NCBI GenBank assembly: GCA_017609695.1
Contig: JAFCDM010000001.1
Coordinates: forward strand, 1 to 34,685
Source: Candidatus Pacearchaeota archaeon
GTDB taxonomy: Archaea > Nanobdellota > Nanobdellia > Pacearchaeales > GW2011-AR1
Direction of reading: 5' to 3'
Length of the DNA: 34,685 nt
Below, piece after piece: positions 1 to 34,685 of this stretch. The position numbers and the translations under genes are program-made. Below the pieces are notes generated by a model that worked only from the letters and a program-made list of their open reading frames with translations, made no database searches and was not told where the DNA came from. How positions within the stretch are numbered: position 1 is the first letter of the stretch; every line of letters begins with the position of its first letter.

Positions 1-111
1 TAAATTTATATTAAATCTCTTTAAAAATACCTTAAATTTTGATTTTAAGGGGTTTAGAATCAATTATTTTTTATTATTTAATAGTTTTAATTTGAATTTT
101 TTTATTTTTTT

Positions 112-240
112 ATAGGAAATTGGGGGGTTTATTTTTAAAAAACCTTTATAAATATTCTTATTTTTGTTGTCTATAAAAAAATTTTTCCATAGGAAATAGA
201 GGTATTTTAAAAAAAACCTAAACCGAAAAGTATATAAATT
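112..240. promoter_or_regulatory. Non-coding terminal region with two diverged tandem modules (ATAGGAAAT-NGRGG ... TTTTAAAAAACCT ... TATA-like)
   Basis: 112-156 (ataggaaattggggggtttatttttaaaaaacctttataaatatt) and 189-240 (ataggaaatagaggtattttaaaaaaaacctaaaccgaaaagtatataaatt) share order and spacing of sub-motifs. No ORF covers 1-259. Confidence 0.5.
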
Positions 241-256
241 ATGTTTATGTATTGTT

Positions 257-361
257 TATATGAAAGAAGAAATAAATGCTCAAGATTTAATTGATTGGAT
301 TTCAGAAGAAGAAATTAAAAAAAAGAAAATAAATTTAAAACTTGCAGAAAGAGAAATAAAA
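257..361. repeat. Left arm of a 105-bp perfect inverted repeat (partner 34581-34685); candidate inverted terminal repeat
   Basis: The reverse complement of 34581-34685 equals 257-361 base for base (tatatgaaagaagaaataaatgctc...cttgcagaaagagaaataaaa). Identity stops at 362/34580. Confidence 0.95.
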
Positions 362-472
362 AATAATTTTAAAAAAGAGTTTGGAATGTCTTGTAAAAAA
401 TTAATTAAAAAATTGAAAAAGCCAGAGAACAAATTTATTTTAGACAGGTTAAAAAATGAAAAAATTAAATAA
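260..472 (+). CDS. Hypothetical Lys/Glu-rich protein; codons 1-34 lie inside the inverted repeat
   Basis: ATG ORF of 70 aa. A TATA-like tatataaatt (231-240) lies 20-29 nt upstream. The N-terminal 34 aa are duplicated at the right end. Confidence 0.5.
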   Translation: MKEEINAQDLIDWISEEEIKKKKINLKLAEREIKNNFKKEFGMSCKKLIKKLKKPENKFILDRLKNEKIK

Positions 473-614
473 ACCAAAAATAACAATAAAAGAGCTTGTT
501 ATTGAAAAAGAAGTAACAAAAGCAAGTGAAAGTGGTGGGCATGTTTTATTGCCAAAAGAATTAATAGGAAAAATTGTTGTTATAAAGTATGTTGATAAAA
601 AAAATAAAATTTAA
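456..614 (+). CDS. Small AbrB/SpoVT-like (DUF2080-like) DNA-binding protein candidate
   Basis: Hand translation gives 52 aa: MKKLNKPKITIKELVIEKEVTKASESGGHVLLPKELIGKIVVIKYVDKKNKI. The G-x-H-V-x-L-P-K-E-x-I-G-K-x-V pattern is typical of the swapped-hairpin AbrB-like fold. The ORF is below the ORF-track size cutoff. Confidence 0.4.
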   Translation: MKKLNKPKITIKELVIEKEVTKASESGGHVLLPKELIGKIVVIKYVDKKNKI

Positions 615-726
615 TTTTGGTTGTGGAAAAAATATTAAAGAAGGCTATGATAATTTAGATAAAATTGATTTTGACTTTAATAAATTTCCATATCCAATTG
701 AAGATAGTGAATTTAAATTAAGGTAA
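589..726 (+). pseudogene. N-terminal remnant of a class I SAM-dependent methyltransferase (about 45 codons, then stop)
   Basis: Translation is MLIKKIKFNFGCGKNIKEGYDNLDKIDFDFNKFPYPIEDSEFKLR*. It contains the GCG SAM-binding motif I and the following NLD...FPYP..D segment. The rest of the Rossmann fold is missing. Confidence 0.4.
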
Positions 727-1609
727 TATTAAAATGAAAACAAAAAATGCACAAGAAATAATTGATGAAGTTATTGAAGATTTAAAAAAAATAAAAAAGG
801 ATACAAAGAAAATATTAAAAGACATAAAAAATGATTAAAGAAATTTTACTACAATGCAAAATAGATATTATTAATTTAATAAAAAATACTTTTTCTTTTT
901 CAATAAAACTACTCCCAATTCTTTTAATTGATATGATTATTATAAAAAAAATAGATAAATATGAGGATGGAAGAGGTTTTGGATTTTTAGGATTCAAAAT
1001 TTTTAATATGATACCATGAGAAAAATAATTACAATAAATGTTGAAAGTGAAACTGAAGAGAACGAAATCCTTTTTGGATTTTTAGAATTTGTTAAAAACA
1101 ATTTTTTTAATTTAAAAGATTTAAAGATAAGTGTCACAGGAAAAGATAAAACAGTATATTATCCAGATAAAAAAAATGAAAATAGAAATATTAAGTAAAA
1201 ATACCATAAAAAGAATTATAAAAAAAGAGATTAATAAATCACTTAAAGATATTTATAAAGATTTAAATAATTTAAGAAAAAAAATGATTTTGATTGAAGA
1301 TGAGGTTAATTTATTATGAAAATGTTAATGATAATTGGGAAAGTTAAAGATTGTATTAAAATAACTGAAGGTCTTGTAAAAAGGCATGGAAATATAACTC
1401 TTGATAATTTTTTAAAAAAATATGAAAAAGAGGTTATAATTTTGTCATGAAAAAAGGAATAGTGGCAATTGCAATAACAGAAAAAGGAATAGCTACAAAA
1501 AGGAATATTAAAAATATAAATTCATCCCAATTTTTTCAATTGATTATAGAACTTGAATTATTAAAAGAAGATTTATTAGAAGAATATAAAAAAAATAGGA
1601 AAAAATCAA

Positions 1610-2194
1610 ATGGTTGAAGTTTTATCTCCAAGAATAAAAGAAATCATTTCTTATGAAAAACCAAAAATAGACATAGGTTTAATAAAAAGAAAATCAAATA
1701 GTAAAACTTTCAGAGGGTATCTTAATGGTTGTATACAAAAAGCAATCAAAGATAAAAACAGAGAATTAGAATTTCTTTTTAAAGAAATTCTAAACAAATT
1801 TAATAAATTTTATCCAAATAAGGTTGTTTTAACAGAAATTGAAATAGTTGAAGGGTGGCAAAGTATAGATAGTTTAGAAATATTTAAGGGATTTACAAAT
1901 GATTTTATCATTAAACAACATCTAAAGGACAAAAAAACAGGTCAGGTTAGAACTACAACCCATCAAATTTCAAAAATAAAGGTCAACACGCTACTTTCAT
2001 GGATAAAACGGTGGAAAGTGGGGGAATCTCATAAATGTTACGATTTTGCCATTAATTTGGGTTATTCTGGATGGAAAGAGTTATGGAAAGAAAGAAAAGA
2101 GTATTTTGAACTATATTATTACCCAATCAAAATTTTAGAAGCATTAAACTTAATTGATTATAGTGGGAGAGGAAAAATAACTAGGTTAAGATGA
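1610..2194 (+). CDS. Hypothetical protein (194 aa)
   Basis: Long ATG ORF on the dominant coding strand, overlapping the next gene by ATGA. I recognise no motif. Confidence 0.5.
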   Translation: MVEVLSPRIKEIISYEKPKIDIGLIKRKSNSKTFRGYLNGCIQKAIKDKNRELEFLFKEILNKFNKFYPNKVVLTEIEIVEGWQSIDSLEIFKGFTNDFIIKQHLKDKKTGQVRTTTHQISKIKVNTLLSWIKRWKVGESHKCYDFAINLGYSGWKELWKERKEYFELYYYPIKILEALNLIDYSGRGKITRLR

Positions 2195-2538
2195 AATTTT
2201 ATAAAGAAAAAAAATATCAAGAATACCTAAAAAATTTTTTTAAAATTATAACCGTGTTTATCTTCTTGGATGTTTTTTCAACATTTTTATTTGTTAGACA
2301 AGATGGAATCTTTGCAGAGGGAAATTTTATTGGAAGGTTTATTCTTCTTTCTTTTGGGGGTTATTCTTATCTCTTTTTATTTTTAGTTTCATTCTTTGCC
2401 CATTTATTAGTTTATTCTTTTATGTATTGTCTTTTAAAAAACAGAGAAGATTTTAAAGAAATGATGTTTTATTATCTTGGAATAATAAGTGGAATTTATC
2501 TCTTGTGTTTATATATTAATTTTAGGAGTTTATTTTAA
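2191..2538 (+). CDS. Polytopic membrane protein (about 4 TM segments)
   Basis: 115 aa with several hydrophobic stretches (ITVFIFLDVFSTFLFV, FILLSFGGYSYLFLFLVSFFAHLLVYSF, YYLGIISGIYLLCLYI). The start overlaps the upstream stop by ATGA. Confidence 0.55.
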   Translation: MKFYKEKKYQEYLKNFFKIITVFIFLDVFSTFLFVRQDGIFAEGNFIGRFILLSFGGYSYLFLFLVSFFAHLLVYSFMYCLLKNREDFKEMMFYYLGIISGIYLLCLYINFRSLF

Positions 2539-2634
2539 ATATTTTCACTAAACAAAATTTAAAAACAAGATTTAATATATATTTGAGGGCAAAACTTCTT
2601 GTAAGATATTGCCTTTCCAATTATTTTAATAAAA

Positions 2635-2778
2635 ATGAAAAAAAAATGTTGTATATGTGGAAAAAAGGCATCTGCAATAATTCAAACAAAATATTATTGT
2701 TTCACATGTTCTTGGAAAGCATCACAAAAATTTAAGTTAGAATTTAAAAAACCAAATAAAATAAAAAATTATACTTAA
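2635..2778 (+). CDS. Zn-ribbon mini-protein
   Basis: Hand translation gives 47 aa: MKKKCCICGKKASAIIQTKYYCFTCSWKAS..., with CxxC...CxxC spacing. Confidence 0.45.
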   Translation: MKKKCCICGKKASAIIQTKYYCFTCSWKASQKFKLEFKKPNKIKNYT

Positions 2779-2779
2779 C

Positions 2780-2911
2780 TTGAAAAAAATAATTAAAAAA
2801 TGTCCAATTTGCAATAGAAAAGTTGTTTCTAATGAATTTGGAGAAATTAGATGTAATTTTTGTGGATGGACTAATTCTAAAAAAAAGGATTTAAAAATTA
2901 GAATTTTTTAA
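2780..2911 (+). CDS. Zn-ribbon mini-protein (TTG start)
   Basis: Translation of 43 aa: (M)KKIIKKCPICNRKVVSNEFGEIRCNFCGWTNSKKKDLKIRIF. There are two CxxC pairs. There is no in-frame ATG, so the start is uncertain. Confidence 0.4.
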   Translation: MKKIIKKCPICNRKVVSNEFGEIRCNFCGWTNSKKKDLKIRIF

Positions 2912-2934
2912 AACAATTGTTAAATTTATATATA

Positions 2935-3255
2935 TTTCCATTGGAAATAGAGGTGTTGGTGTATAACAAGGATTTTGTATAATCAACTATCTACAATTAA
3001 CAATCTACAATTAACAATCTACTATCCCTTATGAGTAAAATACTGGAATTAGTGTATAACAATATATATTATGTTATACACTTTTTAAAAAATCTTGATA
3101 TTTTAATAATAATTTAGTTTTAAAATAATAAAATAATAATAATAATTAATTGTTTAGGTAGATAGTAGATAGTTGATTGTTATACATTTTACAAGGGTAG
3201 GGTGTATTTACTTAGTAATGAAAATAAAGATTTAAATACTACCCTATACTCATAA
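2935..3255. promoter_or_regulatory. Palindromic and iterated non-coding region flanking a nearly pure A/T core; candidate replication origin or major control region
   Basis: gtgtataaca occurs at 2959-2968 and 3052-3061, with inverted copies at 3072-3081 and 3178-3186. The 14-bp tandem ctacaattaacaat x2 lies at 2991-3018. A 14-bp perfect inverted repeat pairs aatcaactatctac (2981-2994) with gtagatagttgatt (3165-3178). The A/T-only core spans about 3082-3155. Confidence 0.5.
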
Positions 3256-3263
3256 ATAACAAT

Positions 3264-3422
3264 ATGAGTGATAAAATAAAAATCTTAAAAGCAAAATGTT
3301 GTTGGTGTGGTAAGGAAATTTCTTCTTTATATGAGAATCAATTAAATTATAATTTACAAGCTCACGAAATATCTTGTAAAAAAAATCCAAAAAATAAAAA
3401 AGGTGAAGAAGAATGTCAATAA
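3264..3422 (+). CDS. Zn-finger mini-protein
   Basis: Translation of 52 aa: MSDKIKILKAKCCWCGKEISSLYENQLNYNLQAHEISCKKNPKNKKGEEECQ, a CxxC...HxxxC pattern. The ORF overlaps the next gene's start. Confidence 0.45.
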   Translation: MSDKIKILKAKCCWCGKEISSLYENQLNYNLQAHEISCKKNPKNKKGEEECQ

Positions 3423-3892
3423 AAATAACATTACCAAAACCAAATATAGATGATAAAATAAGAGAACAACAAATAAGAAAAATAATAGGTGAAGATTTTG
3501 AAAAAAAAGAGGGAATAATATCAAAGGTTTTAATTTTTACTTACCTCCATGCACCAATTTCAATCACAAGACTTACAGATGAAATACAAAATTATTACCA
3601 AATTGAATTTGATAGGGTTAAAATATTTAGAGCTGTTCAAAGATTATCAAAATTAAATGTAATGCAAATAATAAAAGTGGGGGATGTATTTTTGATGGAT
3701 GATGAGGAACTATCAAAAGAACATATAGAAATAAAAAGACAACATAAAATTTTTTTAAATAAATTATCCCCACAATTTAGGAATAGGTATAATAATATGA
3801 ATTATACATGGATTTCAAAAAATGGTGGAGAAAAATATTTAGAATGGGCTTGTAAATTAAATGGGTTTAAATATGAGGATGGAAAAAAGTAA
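3413..3892 (+). CDS. Hypothetical protein, possible winged-helix DNA-binding domain
   Basis: 159-aa ATG ORF. The segment ISITRLTDEIQNYYQIEFDRVKIFRAVQRLSKLNVMQIIKVGD resembles helix-turn-helix plus wing. This call is weak. Confidence 0.5.
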   Translation: MSIKITLPKPNIDDKIREQQIRKIIGEDFEKKEGIISKVLIFTYLHAPISITRLTDEIQNYYQIEFDRVKIFRAVQRLSKLNVMQIIKVGDVFLMDDEELSKEHIEIKRQHKIFLNKLSPQFRNRYNNMNYTWISKNGGEKYLEWACKLNGFKYEDGKK

Positions 3893-4036
3893 AATTGAGT
3901 GGACAAAAAAGCAAGAAGAAACTATAGAAAAGATGATAGAAGAATCAGAAGCAATTGGTTATGTTAATGGATATGATGACGCTATAAAAGAGGTAATAAG
4001 AGAATTAAAAATTAAATTTATAAATAAAATTGAAAA

Positions 4037-4255
4037 ATGACACTAAAATATGAAATAACAAAAACAATAAGAAAAATTAGAAAAGGAAAATTAGAATGTG
4101 ATGTTTTAAAGTTTTGTTTTATTAAAGATTGTGATAATGTTTATTATAATGGAAAGTGGGTGGATTACAAATTAAAATTAGAAGATAAAATGTTAATATC
4201 TTCGGGAATGTGTGATGATTGTTATGATAAACACACAAAGGAGATGAAATTATGA
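4037..4255 (+). CDS. Cys-rich small protein
   Basis: 72-aa ORF with 6 Cys (CDVLKFC..C...CDDC), coupled to its neighbours by ATGA overlaps at both ends. Confidence 0.5.
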   Translation: MTLKYEITKTIRKIRKGKLECDVLKFCFIKDCDNVYYNGKWVDYKLKLEDKMLISSGMCDDCYDKHTKEMKL

Positions 4256-4751: not shown

Positions 4752-4836
4752 GAAACAGGGGTGTTGATATTGGCAAATTTAATTAAATTAAGATTTAAGG
4801 AGGGTATTTTCTAGTGGAAATGAAAACCCCTGTTTC
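4752..4836. repeat. 11-bp perfect inverted repeat (gaaacaggggt / acccctgtttc) separated by 63 nt
   Basis: 4752-4762 and 4826-4836 are exact reverse complements. The sequence is G+C rich against an AT-rich background. It lies at the left border of the GC-richer methyltransferase island. Confidence 0.8.
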
Positions 4837-4873
4837 CAATAGAAAGTTCGTTGTATATCATATTAAACGAAAT

Positions 4874-4900: not shown

Positions 4901-5759
4901 ATGCAAACCAATGTAATTTATCAGGAAGATTGTATAGAAGGAATGAAGAAGTTACCAGACAACAGCGTAGATTTAATTATAACAGACCCTCCTTATATGA
5001 TTAGTCAAGCAGGAAAAAAAATCAGCAGAAAATCACTTTCTTCAAAATCTTGGAAAAGAGATATGGATATTAGGTTAGATTTTGGAAAGTGGGATAATTT
5101 TGAAAGCGAAGCTGATTTTTTTAAATTTACAGAGAGTTGGTTTTCAGAATGTGCAAGGGTGCTTAAACCGAAAGGTTGGATTTATATTTTCTTTGATAAA
5201 CAGAAGATTGGATACTTTGATTTATTTTTATCAAAGAAATATGGAATAAAAGGAAGAACTGTTTTTGCTTGGCTCAAATCCAATCCTGTTCCGTCTTTCC
5301 GTAAAGTTAATTGGCTTTCTGCTTTCAGAATTTGTATGGGTTGGTAGTAAAGGGGAGTGTAAACTTAAAAATTTTCTTCAGCAGAAAGAGATGTTTAATT
5401 ATATGATTACTCCAAATAAATCATCTTACGGGAAGACAAAGCACCCAACAGAAAAGCCAGAATTAGTTATTGAAAAGTTTGTGAAAACCAACTCTGTTAA
5501 AGGAGATATTGTGCTTGACCCATTTATGGGGTCTGGAACTCTTGCTGTTGTCTGTAAGAGATTAAATAGAAATTACATTGGTTTTGAGATTAACAAAGAA
5601 TATTATGATGTTGCTATAAGGAGGTTATCACAGGGAACGGTCTCGGACTTTACTCAAAATGCTTCGCATTTTGGTTCTGCTCCGCAGAACTCGTTTAATA
5701 GCGATTTAACGGCTACGGCTTCGCTTACGCCCAAATTCCCTAAGGGGAACTATCGTTAA
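4901..5759 (+). pseudogene. Beta-class (motif IV before motif I) N6-adenine/N4-cytosine DNA methyltransferase, split by a 1-nt frame disruption near 5320-5330
   Basis: ORF 4901-5347 carries VDLIITDPPY (motif IV). ORF 5265-5759, in another frame, carries HPTEKPELVIEKF and DPFMGSGT (motif I). The expected continuous sequence ...NWLSAF/EFVWVGSKG... needs one skipped base after ttc at 5322-5324. The last 40 or so codons run into a non-coding repeat element. Confidence 0.85.
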
Positions 5760-5808: not shown

Positions 5809-6123
5809 ATGGACATCGCTTTAAATAAAACAGAAATAGAAACAAAAAACATTTTCCTATCATTTGATAGGATAAAAAGCTTTGATGAATTGTTATCTTG
5901 TAAATTGGATGAAGTGGTTTATATGGGTGATTCAGATGAAGAATATCCAAAGCATTTTATCAAAAACCAAAGAATAGAAAAAAAGAAAATGTTTTTTAGC
6001 AAAGCAATATATTTTAAGTTAAACGACATTTTATTAGAACCCACCAAAGTTTATAGAGATAACTTTGAATCTTGTGGTTATGTTTTTTATAAACTGAAAT
6101 TACATTTGGAGGGTTCAACATGA
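5809..6123 (+). CDS. Hypothetical protein (104 aa from ATG 5809)
   Basis: ORF track 5794-6123. I prefer the ATG at 5809, which lies 7 nt after gaggt (5797-5801). I recognise no motif. Confidence 0.5.
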   Translation: MDIALNKTEIETKNIFLSFDRIKSFDELLSCKLDEVVYMGDSDEEYPKHFIKNQRIEKKKMFFSKAIYFKLNDILLEPTKVYRDNFESCGYVFYKLKLHLEGST

Positions 6124-6163
6124 CGCCGATTTATTTTACTCTTTGGGATTTCTGCCTTCGACA

Positions 6164-6321
6164 GAACCGTCTTGCAGACTATCCCTCGTTGCTATCGCAA
6201 GAACATAATATCCGTTTAACGGTTCGCTCCGTTGCACTCGCTCACCCAAATTCGCTTTCAGCGAACTTCGTTAAACTAAATATTAATCGCAATTTCATTT
6301 TCGGCTTACAGGAGGTTTACA
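6164..6321. repeat. GC-rich structured element, copy 2
   Basis: The outer stem pairs gtttaacg (6214-6221) with cgttaaac (6269-6276). The inner hairpin pairs ttcgct (6251-6256) with agcgaa (6260-6265). The element ends at aggaggt and the ATG at 6322. Confidence 0.7.
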
Positions 6322-6639
6322 ATGATAAAAAAGTTTAGAAAAAAACCAGTCGTAATAGAAGCAATACAATGGTGTGGTGATAATTTCCAAGAATTAGAAG
6401 AATTTGGAAGTCAAAGACATATCGTTTCAAATCCAGATGGAACTTTGACTATTGAAACTTTAGAAGGAAATCACACCGCACAAAAAGGCGACTGGATTAT
6501 TAGAGGAGTGCAAGGAGAAGTTTATCCTTGTAAACCAGATATATTTGAACAGACTTATGAAGAAGTCGCCGAAACTGAAACTCAAGCTTCTCCTCCGGAG
6601 AAGTCGTTTAATAAAGGTTATGAGGTAAATCAAAAATGA
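6322..6639 (+). CDS. Small conserved phage-type protein of unknown function
   Basis: Strong RBS (caggaggtttacaATG). The pattern KKPVVIEAIQW...GDWIIRG.QGEVYPCKPDIFEQTYEEV matches, from memory, a small hypothetical protein common in bacteriophage and plasmid genomes. I do not assert a family name. Confidence 0.6.
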   Translation: MIKKFRKKPVVIEAIQWCGDNFQELEEFGSQRHIVSNPDGTLTIETLEGNHTAQKGDWIIRGVQGEVYPCKPDIFEQTYEEVAETETQASPPEKSFNKGYEVNQK

Positions 6640-6704
6640 TTTACCCAAATTCAGTTGGAGATGATTAAAATAAACAAAATAAAACTACTAATTAATAATT
6701 ACAT

Positions 6705-6715
6705 AAATTTATAAA
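6705..6715 (+). promoter_or_regulatory. TATA-box-like element upstream of the RHH gene
   Basis: aaatttataaa lies 22-32 nt upstream of the ATG at 6737, which fits an archaeal-type promoter with a short or absent leader. AT-rich background makes this weak. Confidence 0.3.
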
Positions 6716-6736
6716 CAAAACAAAACAAGAGAAAAT

Positions 6737-6868
6737 ATGATAAAACAAAAATCAGTTGGGATTGAAAGTGAAATAATTAAATTAGTAAAAAAAGAAGCAA
6801 AGAAAAAAAAGAGAAGTGATAGTTATGTTATTAATGAAATATTAAAAAAACATTATAAAATAAAATGA
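6737..6868 (+). CDS. Ribbon-helix-helix (CopG/Arc-like) regulator candidate
   Basis: Hand translation gives 43 aa: MIKQKSVGIESEIIKLVKKEAKKKKRSDSYVINEILKKHYKIK, a strand-helix-helix pattern. It overlaps the downstream surface-protein gene by ATGA. Confidence 0.5.
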   Translation: MIKQKSVGIESEIIKLVKKEAKKKKRSDSYVINEILKKHYKIK

Positions 6869-8298: not shown

Positions 8299-8320
8299 AT
8301 GGTAATTTTATAAAAATATA

Positions 8321-8578
8321 ATGGATTATAAATCAATTTTTTCAAAAGTATTAACTTATTTTGGAGAAAAATCTTCAGAAATTTCTAATTCTATTTTAAA
8401 TAAAATATCTGAAAAATTAGGAATAGATATAATTTTATTTCAATCAAAATTATTAACTATAATCATTCTTTTAATTTTACTTTTATTATCCTTAAAGATA
8501 ACAAAAAAAACAATTAAATTTGTGTTGATAATCTTAATAGCAATATTTATTATTTCAACATTTTTGTCAATTTTTTAA
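8321..8578 (+). CDS. Small membrane protein
   Basis: 85 aa. The C-terminal half consists of two hydrophobic helices (LLTIIILLILLLLSL, FVLIILIAIFIISTFLSIF). Confidence 0.5.
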   Translation: MDYKSIFSKVLTYFGEKSSEISNSILNKISEKLGIDIILFQSKLLTIIILLILLLLSLKITKKTIKFVLIILIAIFIISTFLSIF

Positions 8579-8623
8579 AAGGTAAATATTTATAAATGGT
8601 AAAATATATATAAATTTGTGAAA

Positions 8624-10453: not shown

Positions 10454-10454
10454 G

Positions 10455-11531: not shown

Positions 11532-11570
11532 GGTTACACAAGGGTAATCCTAATTATATAATATGTGCCC

Positions 11571-11645: not shown

Positions 11646-11702
11646 TAGTAACATATTTTCACACCTTAAAAGGGGACTTTTCCATACACTCAAAAAAACA
11701 AA

Positions 11703-23219: not shown

Positions 23220-23220
23220 G

Positions 23221-23379
23221 ATGACATTAAAAAAATTAACAAAAAAAGAGAAGATGGGAATTGTTGGATTTAGTGCAACAATTGTTGGGATTTATATGAT
23301 TTTTATCTTAAAGAACACAAGGGGGGTAATACCACTAATTTTTGGAATTATTTTTATTTGGTTAATGAAAAATGGTTAA
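23221..23379 (+). CDS. Small membrane protein
   Basis: Hand translation gives 52 aa: MTLKKLTKKEKMGIVGFSATIVGIYMIFILKNTRGVIPLIFGIIFIWLMKNG. Confidence 0.45.
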   Translation: MTLKKLTKKEKMGIVGFSATIVGIYMIFILKNTRGVIPLIFGIIFIWLMKNG

Positions 23380-23860: not shown

Positions 23861-23861
23861 A

Positions 23862-24995: not shown

Positions 24996-24997
24996 AA

Positions 24998-25010
24998 CAT
25001 TTATAAATAA
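24998..25010 (+). promoter_or_regulatory. TATA-box-like element upstream of the first giant surface-protein gene
   Basis: catttataaataa lies 48-60 nt upstream of the ATG at 25058. An RBS-like gagga sits at 25051-25055. This is consistent with a short leader but the evidence is weak. Confidence 0.3.
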
Positions 25011-25057
25011 CAATCCCCTATAAATTTGATTGGTTATGTTACAAAACTAAGAGGATA

Positions 25058-25135
25058 ATGGATAAAAAAGCACAAATTAAACTTTTTATAATTGGAATTT
25101 TACTTTTATTAGTTTTAAGTGTTTTTGTTCTTGCA
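25058..25135 (+). repeat. 78-nt leader-peptide repeat, copy 1
   Basis: atggataaaaaagcacaaattaaac...gtttttgttcttgca is identical to 27426-27503. Confidence 0.95.
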
Positions 25136-27433: not shown

Positions 27434-27503
27434 AAAAGCACAAATTAAACTTTTTATAATTGGAATTTTACTTTTATTAGTTTTAAGTGTTTTTGTTCTT
27501 GCA
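27426..27503 (+). repeat. 78-nt leader-peptide repeat, copy 2
   Basis: Identical to 25058-25135. Identity starts 2 nt before the ATG and ends at the predicted signal-peptide end (VLA). Confidence 0.95.
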
Positions 27504-29177
27504 GGAGATTTAATTTCTTCTAATAATCTAAAAACATATAATGATTCAAAAAATGAATTTACAATTAAAAATAAAGATAGTAATTTAATTATTCAAGCAC
27601 AAAGATTAACTCCACAAAATAATTATATTATTGATGTTGGAAAGGGTGTTTTACAAGTAGTAGCAAAATATAATCTTTCTGATTTTGATAAAACTAAAAA
27701 AAATGTTTTTACTAAAACAGAATTTTATAATTTAAATAAAAAGATGAAAAAAGAAGAAAGATATTTTGAATGGAGATGGAAAAATACTTCTTCACATTTG
27801 GAAACAAATTATAGGAGAGATTGTTCAACAGAACTTGTTTGGAATGATGTAAATAAAACAAACGATGAAGTTGAAACTTGTGTTTTAGTTGAAGATGGAA
27901 AAAAAGAAGTTTATGATTATGAATGGATTAAATTTACAGAATTAAGTGAAATAGAAAAAGGTGTTGAAGTTGGTTTGTTTGTTGATGTTTTACGAGGAGA
28001 ACATATTGAGTATATTCCAACATTTGCAGGAGTAGAAATAACAGAAGATGCTGAATGGACAGAAAGTTTAAATGTGGGATTAGTAAGTTATTGGGCTCAC
28101 GAAGATGCAAGTGGAGCTACTTTAACAGATAATGTTTCATCAAATGATGGGGTTATAGATGGTGCTGATTGGTCTGCGTCAGGTTTAAATGGATATGCTT
28201 TATATTATGTTTCTGCTAATACAGATTATACAAAAATAGATGAAAGTGTAAGCATTTATAATTCAGATACTTATTCAATTTTTCTTTGGGTAAATTCTGA
28301 TTCAAATACAGAAAGTTCTATACTTTGTGCAAGATGGGGTGATGGTTCAGGCGATAGTAATCATCTTGCAACAAGAGCTGATGGAGGATATTATTGGGTA
28401 GTAGATACAGGTCTTGGACCAAAAGTAGTAGAACCAGTTCCCGATTTAATCCCAAGTGCAGGAGACTGGCACTCTTTTGCAATGGTTTATAATGGAGTAA
28501 ATGCAACACTTTATTATGATGGTGTTGAACAAAATGATGCAGAAGCAACAACAGGAGCATTTTCAACAACAAGACCAATAGTATTTGGTGCTTATGATGA
28601 CCTAACTGGTGGTTGGTTAAATGGATTAATTGATGAAGTTGGGTGGTGGAATAGAACTTTATCACTTTCTGAAATAGAACAATTAAATAATAGAATAACT
28701 TGGACTGATGAATTTGGAGATTCAACCCCCCCTTCAGTAACAATAAATACCCCAACTAACACAACCTACACCACAAATACAATAAACTTTAATGCAACTG
28801 CAACAGACAATATAGAAATTGATTCTTGTCTTTATTCTTTAAATTCAGGAGTTACAAACTACACATTAACAAATGAAACATCTGTTGATGATTATTATGG
28901 AACAAATACAACTATGGCTCAAGGTTCTCATATAGTTAATTTTTATTGTAATGATACATCTAATAATCTAAATGATTCAGAGAGTATTACTTTTTATATT
29001 GATTCAATAAATCCATCAGCAACAACAAACACACCAGAAAATAACACTTATTCAAATTCAGACCAAAATTACACAGCAAACCTAACAGATAATTTAGGAA
29101 TAAAGAATTCAACTTTATATATTTATAATGAAACTGGAATTGAAAACCAAACAACAACCAATGTATTGTTAGTTTAA
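27426..29177 (+). CDS. Surface protein with a LamG (concanavalin-A-like lectin) domain and Ig-like repeats; probably the 5' part of a split gene continuing at 29186
   Basis: It has the same 26-aa leader as 25058. The LamG signature is LVSYWAHEDASGATLTDNVSSNDGVIDGADW...WHSFAMVYNGVNATLYYDGV...GLIDEVGWWNRTLSLSEIEQL. The ORF ends inside an Ig-like domain and has no C-terminal TM anchor. Confidence 0.75.
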   Translation: MDKKAQIKLFIIGILLLLVLSVFVLAGDLISSNNLKTYNDSKNEFTIKNKDSNLIIQAQRLTPQNNYIIDVGKGVLQVVAKYNLSDFDKTKKNVFTKTEFYNLNKKMKKEERYFEWRWKNTSSHLETNYRRDCSTELVWNDVNKTNDEVETCVLVEDGKKEVYDYEWIKFTELSEIEKGVEVGLFVDVLRGEHIEYIPTFAGVEITEDAEWTESLNVGLVSYWAHEDASGATLTDNVSSNDGVIDGADWSASGLNGYALYYVSANTDYTKIDESVSIYNSDTYSIFLWVNSDSNTESSILCARWGDGSGDSNHLATRADGGYYWVVDTGLGPKVVEPVPDLIPSAGDWHSFAMVYNGVNATLYYDGVEQNDAEATTGAFSTTRPIVFGAYDDLTGGWLNGLIDEVGWWNRTLSLSEIEQLNNRITWTDEFGDSTPPSVTINTPTNTTYTTNTINFNATATDNIEIDSCLYSLNSGVTNYTLTNETSVDDYYGTNTTMAQGSHIVNFYCNDTSNNLNDSESITFYIDSINPSATTNTPENNTYSNSDQNYTANLTDNLGIKNSTLYIYNETGIENQTTTNVLLV

Positions 29178-29527
29178 TAGATGGAGTGAAAACTTGGTTT
29201 TATGATGTTTTTGATTGGGCAGGAAATTCAGATATTTCAGAGAACTACACAATTACTATTGATACTATTAATTCAGATGTAGCAATAACTTACCCAACAA
29301 ACACTTCTTACACCTCAACCCAATCAATTTTAAATTATACCTATTCAGAAGAAAATTGTGATTCTGTTTGGTATTCTTTAGATTTAGGTGTAACAAATTC
29401 TTCAAGACAAGATTGTGGATTAAACTGGACTGGTTTAAGTTCTTTAAGTTCTTCTGAAGGTTCAAATACTTGGACAGTTTATATAAATGATTCAGCAGGA
29501 AATGAAAATAGTTCAAGTGTTACTTTT
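29009..29527 (+). repeat. About 0.5-kb cassette, copy A (spans the 27426/29186 gene break)
   Basis: 29009-29163 equals 30988-31142 with 1 mismatch. 29220-29272 equals 31143-31195 with 1 mismatch. 29331-29527 equals 31254-31441 except for a 9-nt indel. 29164-29219 (56 nt) is absent from copy B. 29273-29330 is diverged. Confidence 0.9.
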
Positions 29528-32479
29528 CTTGTTGCTACAACACCTCCAACCTGTGTTTTACTTGAACGAAGTATTACAGATATTAAAGAAAATTCAACTG
29601 GAATTTATGAAGTAATCGCTAATTGTTCATCACCTTACGAGTTGAATGGTTCAAGTGCATTATCTATGTACACTATTGAGGGGGTTCTTTCTCCAGGAAT
29701 TCCAAATTATTGGAGTATTAGACCACCAGAGAATGATAAAGCAGAATCAAATTTTTATTTTTCAGGAGAACAGATTTTTGTAGCAGATGGTAGAGCAGAT
29801 AATAGGTGGTATGATAATTATTATATTGATGGAGATAAATTATTTGATGATAATTTTACTTATTCTGTTCAAGATAACTCAAGTATTTATTTTTCAATTA
29901 CAGAAGAAAACTCAACACAATTTATTCTTAATTTTTCAAGAAATGTTGAAACAACATTTAGAAATATTATTTATTTAAGGAGAGGAAATCTAGAAAGAGA
30001 ATACAAGGCAGAGCAAAATTACGAAATTTATGACAATAATCCCATTTTAATTAAAATATGGAATTTAGATGCAGAAAGAGAGCATAAAAATTATACTATT
30101 AACATCTTTAGAAACATAAATTATTCTGGGAATCCAAATAAAAATTTAAATGCTTACATTTGTAATAGTTCGTATATTTTTAATGGGGGAACATCTCCAA
30201 AAGATGATTTAGATAATTGTGTTTTAATTAACAGTTTAGATAAAACAGAATTAGACAACATTTATTATTCTTCAAAAAATAGTACTTATTCAAAGGGGGT
30301 ATTTTCTTCTATTAATGGAATTTTAGGGGGTGTATATTTAACAAATTATACTTATCTTTATTATGAAAGTAATACACAATATGGTGCTGGTTTTTATAAT
30401 TTAAGATTTGCAAATGGTTCAAGTGGAACTAATGTAAGTTTTTTAGAATCTAATGTTTCGTGGAGTTCAACAGATGGGGGGGTGAATTTTGTAGATAATC
30501 CATTTACTCCAGATATTTGGTTTTCTGGAATTGCTGAAGGAGACGAACTTAATTTTGGTATAAATATTCAAGATATTTATGGAAATAATTTTACAAATTT
30601 CTCTTTTATCCACGATGATATAGGAGATGTTAATCATCCTATTACAAATCCAACTATTCTTTTCCTTAATAGTTCAATAAATACAAAGGATGATGATTTA
30701 AATAAAATTCATAAAGGATTAATGCAAATTTTAGTTGGTGTTTCCAAAGACCCAGATTCAGTTGGAAATGTAACTCATAATTTAACTTTACATAATCCTG
30801 ATGGAAGTTTAAATTACACAATTAATGCAAGTTTTTTAAGTGCAGATGATTCAGATGTTTGGAAAGATTTTGATACTTCTTTAGTTGCAGATGGAACTTA
30901 TAAAATTAATGTAACTGCATATTCTGGAGATAATTTTAATGATATTAAATCTTTTATGCAAGAAGATAATTTTACAATAGATAATACAAATCCATCAGCA
31001 ACAACAAACACACCAGAAAATAACACCTATTCAAATTCAGACCAAAATTACACAGCAAACCTAACAGATAATTTAGGAATAAAGAATTCAACTTTATATA
31101 TTTATAATGAAACTGGAATTGAAAACCAAACAACAACCAATGCAGGAAATTCAGATATTTCAGAGAACTACACAATTACTATTGATACTATCAATCCTAA
31201 TTTAAATTTAACTTATCCCTTGAATATTTCTTATTCAACAAGTGTTTCTAGAATAAATTATACCTATTCAGAAGAAAATTGTGATTCTGTTTGGTATTCT
31301 TTAGATTTAGGTGTAACAAATTCTTCAAGACAAGATTGTGGATTAAACTGGACTGGTTTAAGTTCTTCTGAAGGTTCAAATACTTGGACAGTTTATATAA
31401 ATGATTCAGCAGGAAATGAAAATAGTTCAAGTGTTACTTTTACTTCAATAGCAACTGCACCAAATGTAATATTATTAAATCCCCCAAATAATGCTTATGA
31501 TGGGGATACTATTTTAGAATTCCAGTATTATGTTACAAGTAGCACAACAATTTCAAATTGTTCTATTTATTTTGATAATAATGTTTTACAAACAACACAA
31601 TCTCCAATAACAAACGGGACAATAAATAATTATTATGTTGATTTTGATTCAACAAGTATTTATCTTAAAGATAACTTAAATTGGTTTGTAAATTGCACAG
31701 ATATAAATAATAAAGAAAATTCTTCTGATGTGTGGGTTGTTGATACATTAGAAGGGGGTTCTGGTTCAAGTGGTGGAGGTGGAGGAGGAACTTATGTGGA
31801 ATTAGAAGTTAATGAATTAGTTTGTAATCAAACCTATTATTATATTTTAAATAATGAAGAAAATTTAACAAGTTTAGTTGAAAAGGTAAATGCTTATTCA
31901 GAATCTTTATTAAGTCGTTATTATTTAGGAAATGTTATAACAAATTGGCAAAATGTTTGTTCAAATAAAATAAATAGAACATTAAAACCAGAGTTTGTTT
32001 GTGAAAAAATATTTTATTATTTAATAGATGAAAATAAAACAGAAGAAGATTTAAATATTTTAAAATCATCAATTAATGATGAAATTTTGTTTTCAGATGG
32101 TTTGTTAGCATATTATTCCGATAATTATAATTCAGTGTGTTATGGGGAGGGGTATTCTGATGCAATTCCAACACGGAATACCCTATCAATAATTCCAATA
32201 ATTTTTAGTGGAGAAATAAATAAATGTAATGAAACCATTGGAATAGATTTTTTTGATTATAGTCTTGATTTTTTCAAAGATGGAATATCTGTTGGAAACC
32301 TCTCTTGTGAATCAACAGATTTTTGGAGGTATATTGTTTCTATCAAAAGAAATGAATCAAATAATACAAAAATAGTTGGTATAAAAATATGGCATATCTT
32401 TTCAATACTTTTTTTAATTTTGTCAATTTATGGAATTAAGGTGTTAAGGAAAGTGAATAAAAAATTAGATGGAATTTAA
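29186..32479 (+). CDS. Giant surface protein (3' part of the split gene): Ig-like repeats, large central domain, Gly-rich linker, Cys-containing domain and TM anchor
   Basis: It has no signal peptide and a GTG pseudo-start. The frame is open from 29144. It begins mid-domain (GVKTWFYDVFDWAGNSDISENYTITIDTIN). The linker is GGSGSSGGGGGGT and the terminal TM is IWHIFSILFLILSIYGI. The C-terminal architecture parallels 25058-27433. Confidence 0.75.
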   Translation: MKTWFYDVFDWAGNSDISENYTITIDTINSDVAITYPTNTSYTSTQSILNYTYSEENCDSVWYSLDLGVTNSSRQDCGLNWTGLSSLSSSEGSNTWTVYINDSAGNENSSSVTFLVATTPPTCVLLERSITDIKENSTGIYEVIANCSSPYELNGSSALSMYTIEGVLSPGIPNYWSIRPPENDKAESNFYFSGEQIFVADGRADNRWYDNYYIDGDKLFDDNFTYSVQDNSSIYFSITEENSTQFILNFSRNVETTFRNIIYLRRGNLEREYKAEQNYEIYDNNPILIKIWNLDAEREHKNYTINIFRNINYSGNPNKNLNAYICNSSYIFNGGTSPKDDLDNCVLINSLDKTELDNIYYSSKNSTYSKGVFSSINGILGGVYLTNYTYLYYESNTQYGAGFYNLRFANGSSGTNVSFLESNVSWSSTDGGVNFVDNPFTPDIWFSGIAEGDELNFGINIQDIYGNNFTNFSFIHDDIGDVNHPITNPTILFLNSSINTKDDDLNKIHKGLMQILVGVSKDPDSVGNVTHNLTLHNPDGSLNYTINASFLSADDSDVWKDFDTSLVADGTYKINVTAYSGDNFNDIKSFMQEDNFTIDNTNPSATTNTPENNTYSNSDQNYTANLTDNLGIKNSTLYIYNETGIENQTTTNAGNSDISENYTITIDTINPNLNLTYPLNISYSTSVSRINYTYSEENCDSVWYSLDLGVTNSSRQDCGLNWTGLSSSEGSNTWTVYINDSAGNENSSSVTFTSIATAPNVILLNPPNNAYDGDTILEFQYYVTSSTTISNCSIYFDNNVLQTTQSPITNGTINNYYVDFDSTSIYLKDNLNWFVNCTDINNKENSSDVWVVDTLEGGSGSSGGGGGGTYVELEVNELVCNQTYYYILNNEENLTSLVEKVNAYSESLLSRYYLGNVITNWQNVCSNKINRTLKPEFVCEKIFYYLIDENKTEEDLNILKSSINDEILFSDGLLAYYSDNYNSVCYGEGYSDAIPTRNTLSIIPIIFSGEINKCNETIGIDFFDYSLDFFKDGISVGNLSCESTDFWRYIVSIKRNESNNTKIVGIKIWHIFSILFLILSIYGIKVLRKVNKKLDGI
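30988..31441 (+). repeat. About 0.5-kb cassette, copy B (internal to 29186-32479)
   Basis: See copy A. This copy reads through in frame (…ENQTTTN-AGNSDISENY…). Confidence 0.9.
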
Positions 32480-32838
32480 AATATTGAAAAAAAATATGCC
32501 TCAAATTCATTAAGAATAACACCATATTTATTGGAACAATTATATAATCTTTCTTGTTCTAATTGTCTTTGATGTATCAATTCGTGTTTTATTGTTCTAA
32601 TTTCTTTTTCAGTAAAATTAATTGTGTCATTTGGTTCAACAAAATTATTTTCAGAAGAAGAATAAATAAAAATTTCGTTAGTTAAGGGGTTAAAATATCC
32701 TCCAATAATGTTTGAATTTATTTCCCCTTTATATTCACAATCAAGATAATAAGAATTATACGAAAAGAGTATGCACTCCAAAATAAATAAAAAAATACAA
32801 ATAATTATAGAATATTTTACACATCTTTTTATTTCCAT
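32476..32838 (-). CDS. Small membrane-anchored HExxH Zn-metallopeptidase candidate
   Basis: 120 aa with an N-terminal TM (YSIIICIFLFILECILF). It carries HELIH (HExxH) and a downstream NEFEAY that could supply the third ligand. Its stop overlaps the convergent giant gene's stop within ttaa (32476-32479). Confidence 0.5.
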   Translation of the reverse strand: MEIKRCVKYSIIICIFLFILECILFSYNSYYLDCEYKGEINSNIIGGYFNPLTNEIFIYSSSENNFVEPNDTINFTEKEIRTIKHELIHQRQLEQERLYNCSNKYGVILNEFEAYFFSIF

Positions 32839-32968
32839 TTCTTTAATTTATGCAGGAATGGGGCAAGACCCAGAAACATTGCCCCAAATAAAAGAGGTGG
32901 TAAGAGATTTTAGTTCATCCTTAGTTTTTTCTGGGTTATCCTTAGATTTTATTTCCTGCATCATTTTG

Positions 32969-33352
32969 TTATGTTTTACTAATTTTTTTAGGTATTTTGA
33001 CAAATCTCCCTTTTGAATCTCTATAAATTTGTCTTTTTTTACCTTTTATTTTAATTTTATCTTCTTTTGCAAAAACACTTTTAATTTTTCCTGTTTTTTT
33101 AATTTTAATTTTTCCCCTAAATAATCTCCTTGTTTTTTTCTTAATTTGAATAACTACACTTGGAATTCTTTTTTCTTCTGGAATTTTATCTAAAATTATG
33201 TTTTGTATTTTCTTTCTATTGAAAAATTCTTTTAATTCAGAATCATCCATCCCGTAGAAATAAGATAGTAAACTTGAATCTTGACTCCAGACTTGCTCTA
33301 GAACCTCTTTAAATGTATTAAAATCTGTAATTTTTTCTAAAATTATGTTCAA
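32969..33352 (-). CDS. Lys-rich hypothetical protein; true start probably upstream of the annotated TTG
   Basis: The reading frame stays open upstream to about 33463 without an ATG. A ggaggt box lies just 3' of the primase stop codon on the - strand. The C-terminus is RQIYRDSKGRFVKIPKK. Confidence 0.5.
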   Translation of the reverse strand: MNIILEKITDFNTFKEVLEQVWSQDSSLLSYFYGMDDSELKEFFNRKKIQNIILDKIPEEKRIPSVVIQIKKKTRRLFRGKIKIKKTGKIKSVFAKEDKIKIKGKKRQIYRDSKGRFVKIPKKISKT

Positions 33353-33479
33353 TGGAATTTTTTGCTGTTGTGCAAGAAATTTAGCATTTGTAAAAAACTG
33401 GTCTTCAAAATATTTTTTCCTAAAATTAGTATCAGTACTATAATATTTGTGTGAAATTTTATTTTACCTCCAATATTTT

Positions 33480-34283
33480 TTAAATGTCAATCACTTTTAT
33501 AAAGTTATTAACCTTTTTAATTTTTTCTTCTTTTGAAAAATTTGGAAATCTCTCTAAATTACCTCTTCTCATCAATTTTATTGATTTTTCAACATATTCT
33601 TTTTTAACAATGTATTCTTTAAAATTTTCAAGTTGAAAATCATTTAATGGAAGAGCAACATTATTTCCAACTAAAGAATAGGGGATTTTACATAATCTGT
33701 TACCAACACCATTATTTCTTAAATCTAAATATTTAAAATTAAATCCTTCTTTTATTTTTTCTCCAATTTTTTTGTGTGGTTGCACCTGACCATTTATTAT
33801 CTTTGGTTCAGGCATATATTCTCCATCTATGAAGATTTGGAATCCTTTTGAGCCACTAAATTGAACAAAATAACTTAATTCGTATTCATCAAAAAAATGT
33901 AGCAATTCTTTCACTTCTTTCAGAACATCATAGATTGTTGAATTTTTATCTTTGTCAAAATCAAAGAATAAATCATAACTATATATTAAATTATCAAATT
34001 TTTCTCTAAACCAAGAACCTGTTTCAGAACTTCTTTTTTTTGGATTGAATGTAAATTCAGGAATTTCTCTTAATCGTGCAATACTTCTATAAAAATTTTG
34101 TTTTTGATTACCCCAATTAACTAATTTTAATATTCTTTCAAAATCAAATAAATTTTTAAATTTTAAAGCCCTAATCGCACCTCTTTTTCCAATAACAGCA
34201 AATTCTCTATCTTTACAGTTTTCTCTTAATAAATGCTTTATATATTGTTTAGAATAATATTCCTGTTCCATTTCAATAATCAA
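33480..34283 (-). CDS. Archaeo-eukaryotic primase (PriS-like / primase-polymerase) catalytic protein
   Basis: N-terminal REFAV...FYRSIA. Motif I is YDLFFDFDKD (DxD). Motif II is FSGSKGFQIFI (SGxG, with Gln where His is usual). Motif III is YLDLRNNGVGNRLCKIPYSL (D...R..K.P.S). Confidence 0.75.
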   Translation of the reverse strand: MIIEMEQEYYSKQYIKHLLRENCKDREFAVIGKRGAIRALKFKNLFDFERILKLVNWGNQKQNFYRSIARLREIPEFTFNPKKRSSETGSWFREKFDNLIYSYDLFFDFDKDKNSTIYDVLKEVKELLHFFDEYELSYFVQFSGSKGFQIFIDGEYMPEPKIINGQVQPHKKIGEKIKEGFNFKYLDLRNNGVGNRLCKIPYSLVGNNVALPLNDFQLENFKEYIVKKEYVEKSIKLMRRGNLERFPNFSKEEKIKKVNNFIKVIDI

Positions 34284-34581
34284 AATTTTTTTTCTTTGAT
34301 TTGTTTTTTAATTCTTTAATTAATTGGTATGCTTCTTGTTTGGTTAAATCTTCTTTTATTTTTATTCCTTCTTTTGATAACCTCCAAATTTGGCTTTTTG
34401 TGGCTAATTTATCTATATTTGGTTTTTCATTATCTAACATACCATCTTCTTCATAATTAACAAAAGCAATCCAATTTTTTTCAATATAAAATATTTGTGT
34501 AGAGATATAATTCTTTAATTTATTTATTTCTTCCACTATTTGTTTTTCACTTCTTTTTTTAAAAACTTTTATTTTTTTCAT
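34273..34581 (-). CDS. Hypothetical protein (102 aa)
   Basis: ATG ORF coupled by ATGA to the 34-codon ORF inside the inverted repeat, and overlapping the primase start. I recognise no motif. Confidence 0.55.
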   Translation of the reverse strand: MKKIKVFKKRSEKQIVEEINKLKNYISTQIFYIEKNWIAFVNYEEDGMLDNEKPNIDKLATKSQIWRLSKEGIKIKEDLTKQEAYQLIKELKNKSKKKNFDY

Positions 34582-34682
34582 TTTATTTCTCTTTCTGCAA
34601 GTTTTAAATTTATTTTCTTTTTTTTAATTTCTTCTTCTGAAATCCAATCAATTAAATCTTGAGCATTTATTTCTTCTTTCAT
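34578..34682 (-). CDS. 34-codon ORF inside the right inverted-repeat arm (duplicate of the N-terminus of 260-472)
   Basis: Translation is MKEEINAQDLIDWISEEEIKKKKINLKLAEREIK*. The stop falls exactly at the repeat boundary. It may serve only as a translational coupling leader. Confidence 0.35.
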   Translation of the reverse strand: MKEEINAQDLIDWISEEEIKKKKINLKLAEREIK

Positions 34683-34685
34683 ATA
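34581..34685. repeat. Right arm of the 105-bp perfect inverted repeat, truncated by the window end
   Basis: Same comparison as the left arm. This arm ends exactly at the last base of the window, so the repeat may continue as the inverted copy of 1-256. Confidence 0.95.

Follow-up and report, generated by a model that had tools for sequence, protein, structure and literature searches.

A member of the Fsx1 family of fusexins, which are class II membrane fusogens, is encoded on contig JAFCDM010000001.1 of assembly GCA_017609695.1 (Candidatus Pacearchaeota archaeon). The window analysed in this work is the whole contig, 34,685 nt in length with a guanine-plus-cytosine (GC) content of 26%; all coordinates refer to it, and genes lie on the plus strand unless stated otherwise. 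With a little better than even confidence, we regard the window as an extrachromosomal element of an archaeon with low GC content, about 35 kb in size and nearly complete, and we lean towards a capsid-less element that spreads by membrane fusion. The fusogen itself is already known; the backbone that carries it is not of a published kind.

Fusexins link the fusion of eukaryotic gametes, cell fusion in animals and the entry of enveloped RNA viruses of the dengue type, and their origin is an open question, phrased as "the virus or the egg". The archaeal fusexin carriers described so far are only integrated, conjugation-like elements of haloarchaea. The contig provides a non-halophile Fsx1 with a nearly complete and different backbone of about 35 kb, in which a cassette of putative partner, fusogen and protease is accompanied by hypervariable adhesins. 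It thus makes testable the travel of archaeal fusexins on virus-like or vesicle-borne elements and their use of companion proteins in the manner of viral class II fusogens, and it suggests a possible route of gene movement among ultra-small symbiotic archaea.

Identification of the Fsx1 fusexin

The open reading frame (ORF) at 20132-21952, which encodes a protein of 606 amino acids (aa), is a member of the published Fsx1 family, since structure comparison, profile-profile alignment, an NCBIfam profile and BLASTP all agree on this assignment; its fusion activity is predicted. An AlphaFold2 model built from nine homologues had the archaeal Fusexin1 structure 7P4L as its best Foldseek match (E 3e-17), and all of the 50 matches listed were class II fusogens or complexes containing them, including HAP2, EFF-1, alphavirus E1 and bunyavirus Gc. 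Alignment of the family with eight published Fsx1 proteins by hhalign gave a probability of 98.7% and E 2.6e-16 over 380 columns, and the NCBIfam model NF053506 ("fusexin 1") matched with E 1.4e-13. In BLASTP, the protein was 51% identical (E 5e-141) to AcL_4.5, an Ace Lake Fsx1 that Moi et al. 2022 (PMC9259645) list in their Supplementary Data 1. The orthologue on the related contig L013 was recognized by both the Pfam Fsx1 (PF28161) and HAP2-GCS1 models.

The protein possesses an N-terminal signal or transmembrane segment, an ectodomain of approximately 470-500 aa with a cysteine-rich region at residues 443-487, where six cysteines are invariant, and three C-terminal transmembrane helices. 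Hydrophobic segments were located at residues 7-26, 522-540 and 560-606 by a hydropathy scan, and the C-terminal helices span residues 501-603 in the model. The published Fsx1 proteins contain one to four transmembrane segments and 5-30 cysteines (PMC9259645). Fsx1 was experimentally shown to fuse cells by Moi et al. (PMC9259645), who reported no evidence of fusexins in archaeal viruses (PMC9259645); in full-text literature searches to 2026, we found no paper linking Fsx1 to DPANN elements or archaeal viruses. This key gene had been overlooked in the inventory of the first-pass annotation of the contig, which was made from the sequence alone.

The membrane cassette around fsx1

The gene directly upstream of fsx1 (19013-20041) encodes a 342-aa protein, the best-conserved marker of the element family described below. 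Its predicted structure, with a predicted local distance difference test score (pLDDT) of 91, comprises two N-terminal transmembrane helices, a disordered linker and two beta-sandwich domains. The matches of this model in PDB were pilin- and integrin-type Ig-like domains at low TM-scores, and none of the top 50 was a capsid protein. A single or double jelly-roll or HK97 capsid is ruled out for this protein by a confident model with Ig-like matches only; being built of membrane-anchored beta-sandwiches with no capsid among the PDB matches, it is not the missing capsid. One strong similarity was found in BFVD, where the model matched the viral protein A0A5Q2WAX2 (309 aa) with E 7e-21 and a TM-score of 0.67-0.73 over 291 columns at 18% sequence identity. 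A0A5Q2WAX2 may belong to the Nanoarchaeota virus NAV1, a suspicion prompted only by the similar age of the GenBank protein accessions of NAV1 (QFW685xx) and the UniProt accession.

Because the 342-aa protein is membrane-anchored, is built of beta-sandwiches and is encoded directly before the fusogen, we propose that it may be a partner of Fsx1 comparable to E2, prM or Gn. The comparison concerns position and build: among the top PDB matches, no fold or sequence match to E2, prM or Gn was seen. The pairing of Fsx1 with the 342-aa protein is kept in five of the seven distinct lineages.

Together, these two genes form part of a membrane cassette that is the conserved core of the element. The cassette starts with a 279-aa type I membrane glycoprotein (17904-18743) that carries 10 N-glycosylation sequons, is conserved and is encoded two genes upstream of fsx1; like the 342-aa protein, it is read as a membrane-anchored beta-sandwich glycoprotein. 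Downstream of fsx1, six small membrane proteins of 52-126 aa (21954-23379), each with one or two hydrophobic segments, are partly kept in relatives and are followed by a CPBP/Rce1-like intramembrane protease (23372-23860; Pfam Rce1-like E 1e-9). The CPBP family also occurs on the related contigs L001, L002, L004, L005, L010 and L013. The next gene (23862-24995) encodes a 377-aa type I membrane protein, for which no homologue was detected in the examined parts of related contigs.

Gene content and layout of the element

About half of the coding capacity had been assigned to exported or membrane proteins by the first-pass annotation, and the hydropathy scan bears this out: stretches 6865-10453 and 17904-32479, which encode proteins with signal peptides or transmembrane segments, amount to approximately 18.2 kb, or 52% of the window. 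Within them, all but one of the ORFs of at least 50 aa have an N-terminal and/or C-terminal hydrophobic segment. The exception, 29186-32479, lacks an N-terminal hydrophobic segment and looks like a continuation of the preceding ORF. The large proteins contain 20-57 N-glycosylation sequons each. Of the surface modules proposed earlier, the LamG and Ig-like ones were recovered with Pfam, whereas the cohesin-like (a PDB match of E 0.14) and beta-propeller (repeats only) modules proved weaker than stated.

Nearly all genes are on the plus strand, the minus strand being used only at 16439-17720 and 32476-34581. The left arm (1-6.6 kb) contains small regulators, zinc-ribbon-like ORFs, a frameshifted methyltransferase and an iteron-like candidate origin, a P-loop NTPase lies mid-element, and a putative primase-polymerase (prim-pol) is at the right end. 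Downstream of the membrane cassette are variable, heavily glycosylated adhesin-like giants. The replication set would consist of the prim-pol, the P-loop NTPase and the iteron-like non-coding region at 2930-3260, with regulators besides.

In agreement with the earlier claim that virion hallmark and maintenance genes are missing, scans of 56 ORFs against Pfam, PHROGs and NCBIfam detected no capsid, portal, terminase, FtsK/A32-type packaging ATPase, integrase or partition gene. The same scans of the window ORFs detected no XerC/D, HerA, VirB4 or TraG/VirD4 and no copy-control gene, and neither a protein-primed polymerase nor any tRNA or Rfam gene was found in the window. No capsid fold is present in the two core proteins that were modelled, the 342-aa protein and Fsx1.

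A family of syntenic elements and its probable host

For the 342-aa family, a word-indexed search yielded 90 clusters, with contigs of 27-59 kb carrying many of them; an exhaustive profile search gave 601 clusters (50% identity), of which 430 had E values below 1e-10. The GC content of the examined relatives is 29-34%. The same gene order was established by tblastn and hidden Markov model (HMM) searches in L001, L002, L005-L008 and L013: the genes for the 611-aa and 358-aa proteins, the winged-helix regulator, the 255-aa protein and small soluble proteins, in some relatives the divergent NTPase gene, then the genes for the 279-aa protein, the 342-aa protein and Fsx1, and finally those for small transmembrane proteins, the CPBP protease and giant adhesin-like proteins. 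Relatives differ in their arms and adhesins. That one relative was assembled to 58,996 bp in one sample and to 59,086 bp in another (longest recorded contig, 59,914 bp) argues for complete replicons. No tRNA or housekeeping gene was found in relatives within 10 kb on either side of the marker gene. Together with the absence of cellular genes and tRNAs from the window, this supports the earlier view of a mobile element rather than a chromosomal island. The accompanying statement that the lineage could not be assigned no longer holds: the element encodes a fusexin of the published Fsx1 family and is one of a large group of related elements with shared gene order. The pleomorphic, spindle-shaped or vesicle-forming virus suggested there is a possible reading; none of the protein families of pleolipoviruses or spindle-shaped viruses was matched, and the patterns scanned against IMG/VR retrieved no relative.

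Several relatives carry additional genes. In L013, cargo genes for a diadenylate cyclase, a Fic protein and the TnpB of IS605 adjoin the NTPase gene (9378-13092); in L005, a LAGLIDADG endonuclease gene stands beside an MCM_OB-like ORF (5959-7683), and L011 encodes a Holliday-junction endonuclease (12474-12687).

Among 185,579 species-representative genomes, the only family member found was on a 3.3-kb contig of a Nanoarchaeota metagenome-assembled genome (MAG). The motif FNEEGNLID gave 11 matches in GTDB representative genomes, all of which were recognized as chance by an HMM check. In tblastn comparisons that used core proteins, singly or concatenated, and nine divergent homologues of the 342-aa protein as queries, no match was obtained in 50,697 phage and archaeal-virus records (INPHARED) or 72,556 plasmids (PLSDB); on this result, membership in one of these deposited viruses or plasmids was rejected.

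The host is probably a DPANN archaeon of the Nanoarchaeota/Nanobdellota type. This is suggested by MAG labels that name Nanoarchaeota, by a GC content of 26-34% across the window and its relatives, and by one relative that comes from a 0.1-um groundwater fraction. For one order of Nanobdellota, the reported GC content is 26-42%.

Inverted repeat and ends of the contig

The window contains an inverted repeat of 105 nt with 100% identity between its arms at 257-361 and 34581-34685, of which only the right arm is terminal. At the left end (1-361), positions 1-256 are non-coding and AT-rich, and the arm covers the first 34 codons of ORF 260-472. The right arm, complementary to 257-361, stops at the contig end and carries the same 34-codon leader on the minus strand, where the stop codon of the leader overlaps the ATG of a 102-aa ORF. 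Past the inner boundary, the identity falls to 34%. Of the inverted terminal repeats (ITRs) claimed for this contig, the repeat itself is thus real and perfect over 105 nt; it is asymmetric, however, with an internal left arm, and is a candidate rather than an established terminal repeat. No direct overlap exists between the two contig ends, and a circular contig is thus not indicated.

In other Joint Genome Institute (JGI) samples, exact-protein look-up identified the same element on three short contigs. The first (L029) corresponds to window positions 235-4150, and its start precedes the left arm's inner edge by exactly 127 nt; the second (L030) starts at precisely 34580, where the right arm has its inner edge; and the third (L031) corresponds to 34391-31254. 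If the assemblies were made with k=127, a value that is assumed here and not taken from assembly records, these break points are as expected from a de Bruijn branch at the inner edge (361-127+1), in which case the repeat would measure at least 127 nt and the window would be truncated on the right. If position 1 is the true end, the ITR would be 361 nt long and the genome approximately 34.9 kb.

Proposed route of transmission

Since published Fsx1 has been shown to fuse cells, and since capsid, packaging, integration, partition and conjugation genes are absent, capsid-free spread by membrane fusion is the most economical reading, and we hold it with slightly better than even confidence. In such a mechanism, the adhesins would bind the target cell and Fsx1 would merge the two membranes, perhaps held back by its putative partners encoded upstream (342 and 279 aa), much as E2, prM or Gn restrain the class II fusogens of viruses. 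The DNA of the element would then pass without a protein capsid or packaging motor: the carrying membrane, made adhesive and fusogenic by the element, would allow movement without a capsid. As the carrier, we slightly prefer a membrane-bounded one, such as a vesicle or pleomorphic particle, over direct cell-cell fusion, the route that Moi et al. proposed for the haloarchaeal elements (PMC9259645). The BFVD match, the lack of a conjugation gene and the repeat-bounded genome speak for the particle route; the lack of an IMG/VR relative and the bilateral action of Fsx1 in baby hamster kidney (BHK) cells speak against it.

A number of observations weigh against this interpretation as a whole. What is shown are the gene identities, the conserved gene order and the lack of capsid, packaging, integration and conjugation genes; host, topology, the partner role of the 342-aa protein and the route of transmission are inferred, and no particle, vesicle or fusion has been observed. 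In BHK cells, both membranes need Fsx1 (PMC9259645), and this bilateral action is awkward for spread into naive cells. The confidence of the Fsx1 model is moderate (pLDDT 65.5; predicted TM-score, pTM, 0.37) and its TM-scores are low (0.2-0.3), and the NF053506 score of 50 bits is far under the equivalog cut-off of 650, so that the match is one at the family level and not that of an equivalog. The pairing of Fsx1 with the 342-aa protein is not universal: L004, on a 72-kb contig, has the 342-aa gene without a detectable Fsx1 and with a 387-aa gene in its place, and L010-L012 have Fsx1 without a detectable 342-aa homologue, the preceding gene encoding a 376-aa protein that the 342-aa profile does not recognize. 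The partner slot beside fsx1 thus seems to be exchangeable. The contig ends are compatible with two topologies, one linear and ITR-bearing, the other circular, with a large inverted repeat and an unseen second unique region. No relative was found in IMG/VR by scans with window peptides, Fsx1 alignment patterns and the motif FNEEGNLID, and there was no PHROG match. Finally, two MAG bins underlie the host label, and one of these is assigned to Heimdallarchaeaceae; according to Moi et al., bins of this kind are unreliable where mobile elements are concerned (PMC9259645).

The strongest competitor, which we consider possible and clearly less probable, is a true enveloped archaeal DNA virus. Fsx1 would then be a unilateral entry fusogen, the 342-aa and 279-aa proteins its envelope partners and the adhesins receptor-binding spikes; the NTPase and the small soluble core proteins would condense and load the genome. 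This explanation overlaps the particle branch of fusion-mediated spread and further invokes an infectious cycle with a virion of its own. Linear genomes of archaeal viruses commonly have inverted repeats at their ends, which counts in its favour, as do the absence of conjugation and integration genes and the clear structural homologue of the 342-aa model in a UniProt viral proteome (A0A5Q2WAX2), although the identity of the latter could not be established. The divergent NTPase gene beside the membrane-protein block also recalls the VP3, VP4 and ATPase core of pleolipoviruses (10.1101/2025.02.15.638363). However, the element has no match to virus protein families, deposited virus genomes or IMG/VR, and the sole Fsx1 tested works bilaterally. 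It is possible, though less likely than not, that the element is the genome of an enveloped, pleomorphic or vesicle-like DPANN virus that enters cells with a class II fusogen and a companion glycoprotein encoded upstream; in that case, a fusexin would be recorded for the first time in a virus of prokaryotes.

Half of the coding capacity is devoted to adhesin-like surface protein, and this could also be read as the signature of a plasmid that serves its host, with Fsx1 and the adhesins aiding the attachment of an ultra-small symbiont to a larger archaeon and the formation of cytoplasmic bridges, and with mostly vertical inheritance. DPANN archaea need host contact, cytoplasmic exchange between such partners has been cited (10.1101/2025.02.15.638363), and relatives carry cargo genes, such as those for the diadenylate cyclase, Fic and TnpB in L013. 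We nevertheless consider such a plasmid improbable: no partition or copy-control genes for stable vertical inheritance were found, the family is nearly absent from MAG-based species representatives, and the adhesin genes, which are the least conserved and partly broken, would suit an element that spreads, as determinants of its host range, no less well.

Least probable is an integrated element or chromosomal island resembling the integrated mobile elements (IMEs) of haloarchaea and placed on a separate contig by an assembly break at its borders: all fsx1 genes of cultured haloarchaea do lie in integrated elements of >50 kb, the metagenomic contigs were described as "plausibly also IMEs" (PMC9259645) and the relative L004, of which 21 kb were examined, is on a 72-kb contig, but the window and the examined relatives show neither an integrase or tRNA gene nor flanking cellular genes, XerC/D, HerA, VirB4 and TraG are missing, the contig terminates in an inverted repeat of its own, and relatives recur at near-equal lengths in different samples.

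Comparison with known systems

The closest relatives in terms of the fusogen are the haloarchaeal Fsx1 elements (Moi et al. 2022, Nat Commun 13:3880), which have in common with this element a homologous fusogen of the same topology and a mobile carrier of distinctive composition. The haloarchaeal carriers are chromosomal insertions of >50 kb with XerC/D, HerA, VirB4 and TraG/VirD4 (PMC9259645). In contrast, the element described here is 34.7 kb in size and free-standing, is associated with an inverted repeat, lacks the IME genes and has instead a prim-pol, a P-loop NTPase and a membrane-protein block; its GC content is 26% and its host presumably of the DPANN type, not a halophile. According to the legend of Supplementary Fig. 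9 in PMC9259645, the haloarchaeal elements fell into a single gene-content cluster, and the non-halophile fsx1 contigs did not group with them.

With the enveloped viruses of eukaryotes that use class II fusogens (alphavirus E2-E1, flavivirus prM-E, bunyavirus Gn-Gc), the element shares the fusogen fold and a gene for a membrane-anchored beta-sandwich protein directly upstream; these are, however, RNA viruses of eukaryotes with nucleocapsids. Pleolipoviridae and plasmid-vesicle elements such as pR1SE, which are capsid-less, membrane-bounded archaeal systems, resemble the element in that they have no capsid protein, their genome travels, as that of the element would, in a membrane studded with a fusion or spike protein, and an NTPase is part of the core module. 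Pleolipoviridae differ in genome size (7-17 kb, so that the 34.7 kb found here is 2-5 times larger) and in a fusogen of another structural class, and no particle is known for the element. No ORF of the window has a PHROG or Pfam match to VP3, VP4 or the pleolipovirus ATPase. Spindle-shaped viruses (Fuselloviridae, Halspiviridae and Thaspiviridae) have a small hydrophobic capsid protein, an alpha-helical hairpin, and an AAA+ ATPase; the element has two-transmembrane proteins and a P-loop NTPase, with no match to a virus family. The two-transmembrane proteins in question (60-85 aa) are encoded at 8321-8578, 14395-14643, 15749-15979 and 22865-23047, and none of them matches a virus family.

Adhesin-like proteins

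The first of the adhesin-like giants (25058-27433) is a 791-aa glycoprotein that carries 28 sequons and combines Ig-like modules with approximately seven repeats of 47 aa. The repeats had no profile match to a beta-propeller, and a propeller is possible from the repeats only. The second (27426-32479) is a LamG and Big_13 protein encoded by two ORFs of 583 and 1097 aa, split by TAA TAG at 29175-29180. Pfam recognized Laminin_G_3 in 27426-29177 (E 1.8e-18) and Big_13 in 29186-32479 (E 1.5e-7), and at this position relatives have single proteins of 2029-2443 aa. Both adhesin-like genes begin with an identical stretch of 79 nt (25057-25135 and 27425-27503), so that they have the same signal peptide, and adhesin modules of 176-226 nt are duplicated at 28988-29444 and 30967-31367. 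The duplications, the common gene start and the split ORF are signs of recombination-driven turnover of surface proteins.

Core proteins and replication genes

The conserved genes upstream of the membrane cassette encode a 611-aa core glycoprotein (8618-10453) with a signal peptide, a beta-rich ectodomain and a C-terminal transmembrane segment, which is kept in relatives, and a soluble 358-aa core protein (10455-11531) with weak coiled-coil-type matches, whose gene is kept adjoining the 611-aa gene. A conserved run of soluble core proteins of 255, 109, 133 (with a CPYC motif), 78, 142 and 63 aa follows at 12002-14411. Preceding them, the 477-aa type I membrane protein (6865-8298) has a weakly cohesin-like N-terminal domain and is cysteine-rich before its C-terminal transmembrane segment. 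The likeness to cohesin is one sub-threshold PDB match (5G5D, E 0.14), and no homologue was found in the examined parts of related contigs. A cysteine-rich domain common to this protein and Fsx1 was not supported by BLASTP.

The 371-aa P-loop NTPase (16439-17554, minus strand), with the Walker A motif APPATGKT, is encoded divergently from the membrane-protein block and is present in some relatives only. In Pfam, its eight orthologues had only sub-threshold P-loop/AAA matches, and the window protein had non-significant AAA/MCM-type ones. A profile search against PDB sequences gave only noise for the NTPase and for the 358-aa and 255-aa proteins. At the right end, a 267-aa protein (33480-34283, minus strand) is a putative archaeo-eukaryotic primase (AEP) prim-pol, in which the motifs FFDFD and SGSKG can be read. 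Its matches to Pfam LigD_Prim-Pol (E 1.6e-4) and NCBIfam ligD_pol (E 4.3e-5) are both under the curated cut-offs, and it had no match in PDB. The minimal replication set named earlier therefore stands in part, its AEP primase as sub-threshold profiles with motifs and its AAA+ protein as a P-loop only.

In comparison with the window, contig L030 has a 31-nt deletion in the prim-pol gene (33556-33586), where a protein of 240 aa is called instead of 267 aa, and four further substitutions over the next 2.2 kb, a variation at the population level. Close to the prim-pol gene, a 120-aa membrane protein (32476-32838, minus strand) without a family match carries a HELIH motif and is possibly a small zinc metalloprotease. 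Its sequence is identical in two other samples.

Left arm, regulatory repeats and small ORFs

The non-coding region at 2930-3260 contains repeats, inverted copies and an AT-rich core. The 14-nt unit AATTAACAATCTAC occurs three times, with inverted copies 135 nt away, and GTGTATAACAA/TTGTTATACAC is present in four copies; the region could accordingly be described as a candidate internal replication origin of the iteron type. The motif TTCCATWGGAAATAGAGGT occurs twice exactly and once with three mismatches (0.07 expected by chance), at 185-203, 2936-2954 and, on the minus strand, 4826-4844, so that one copy is located in the terminal non-coding stretch and another adjoins the origin-like region.

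Another repeat, the perfect 25-nt tandem CTAAGGTACCCTAAGTGAACGATAA, is present in 3.1 copies at 11570-11647, directly 5' of the gene for the winged-helix regulator (11703-12014), and probably represents an operator array within this unit (11570-12014).

A type II N6/N4 DNA methyltransferase is encoded at 4901-5759 by ORFs 4901-5347 and 5265-5759, which are split by a +1 frameshift. The two ORFs matched Pfam N6_N4_Mtase (E 9.5e-18 and 1.5e-25) and covered positions 9-134 and 166-254 of the 260 positions of the PADLOC MTase_II profile, the sole match to a defence system that PADLOC found in the window. The local GC content of 0.30-0.33 is above that of the surroundings, which suggests a recent acquisition. 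Small ORFs with paired CxxC motifs, zinc-ribbon-like and without family matches, are located at 2640-2900, 3264-3422, 4037-4255 and 13470-13706.

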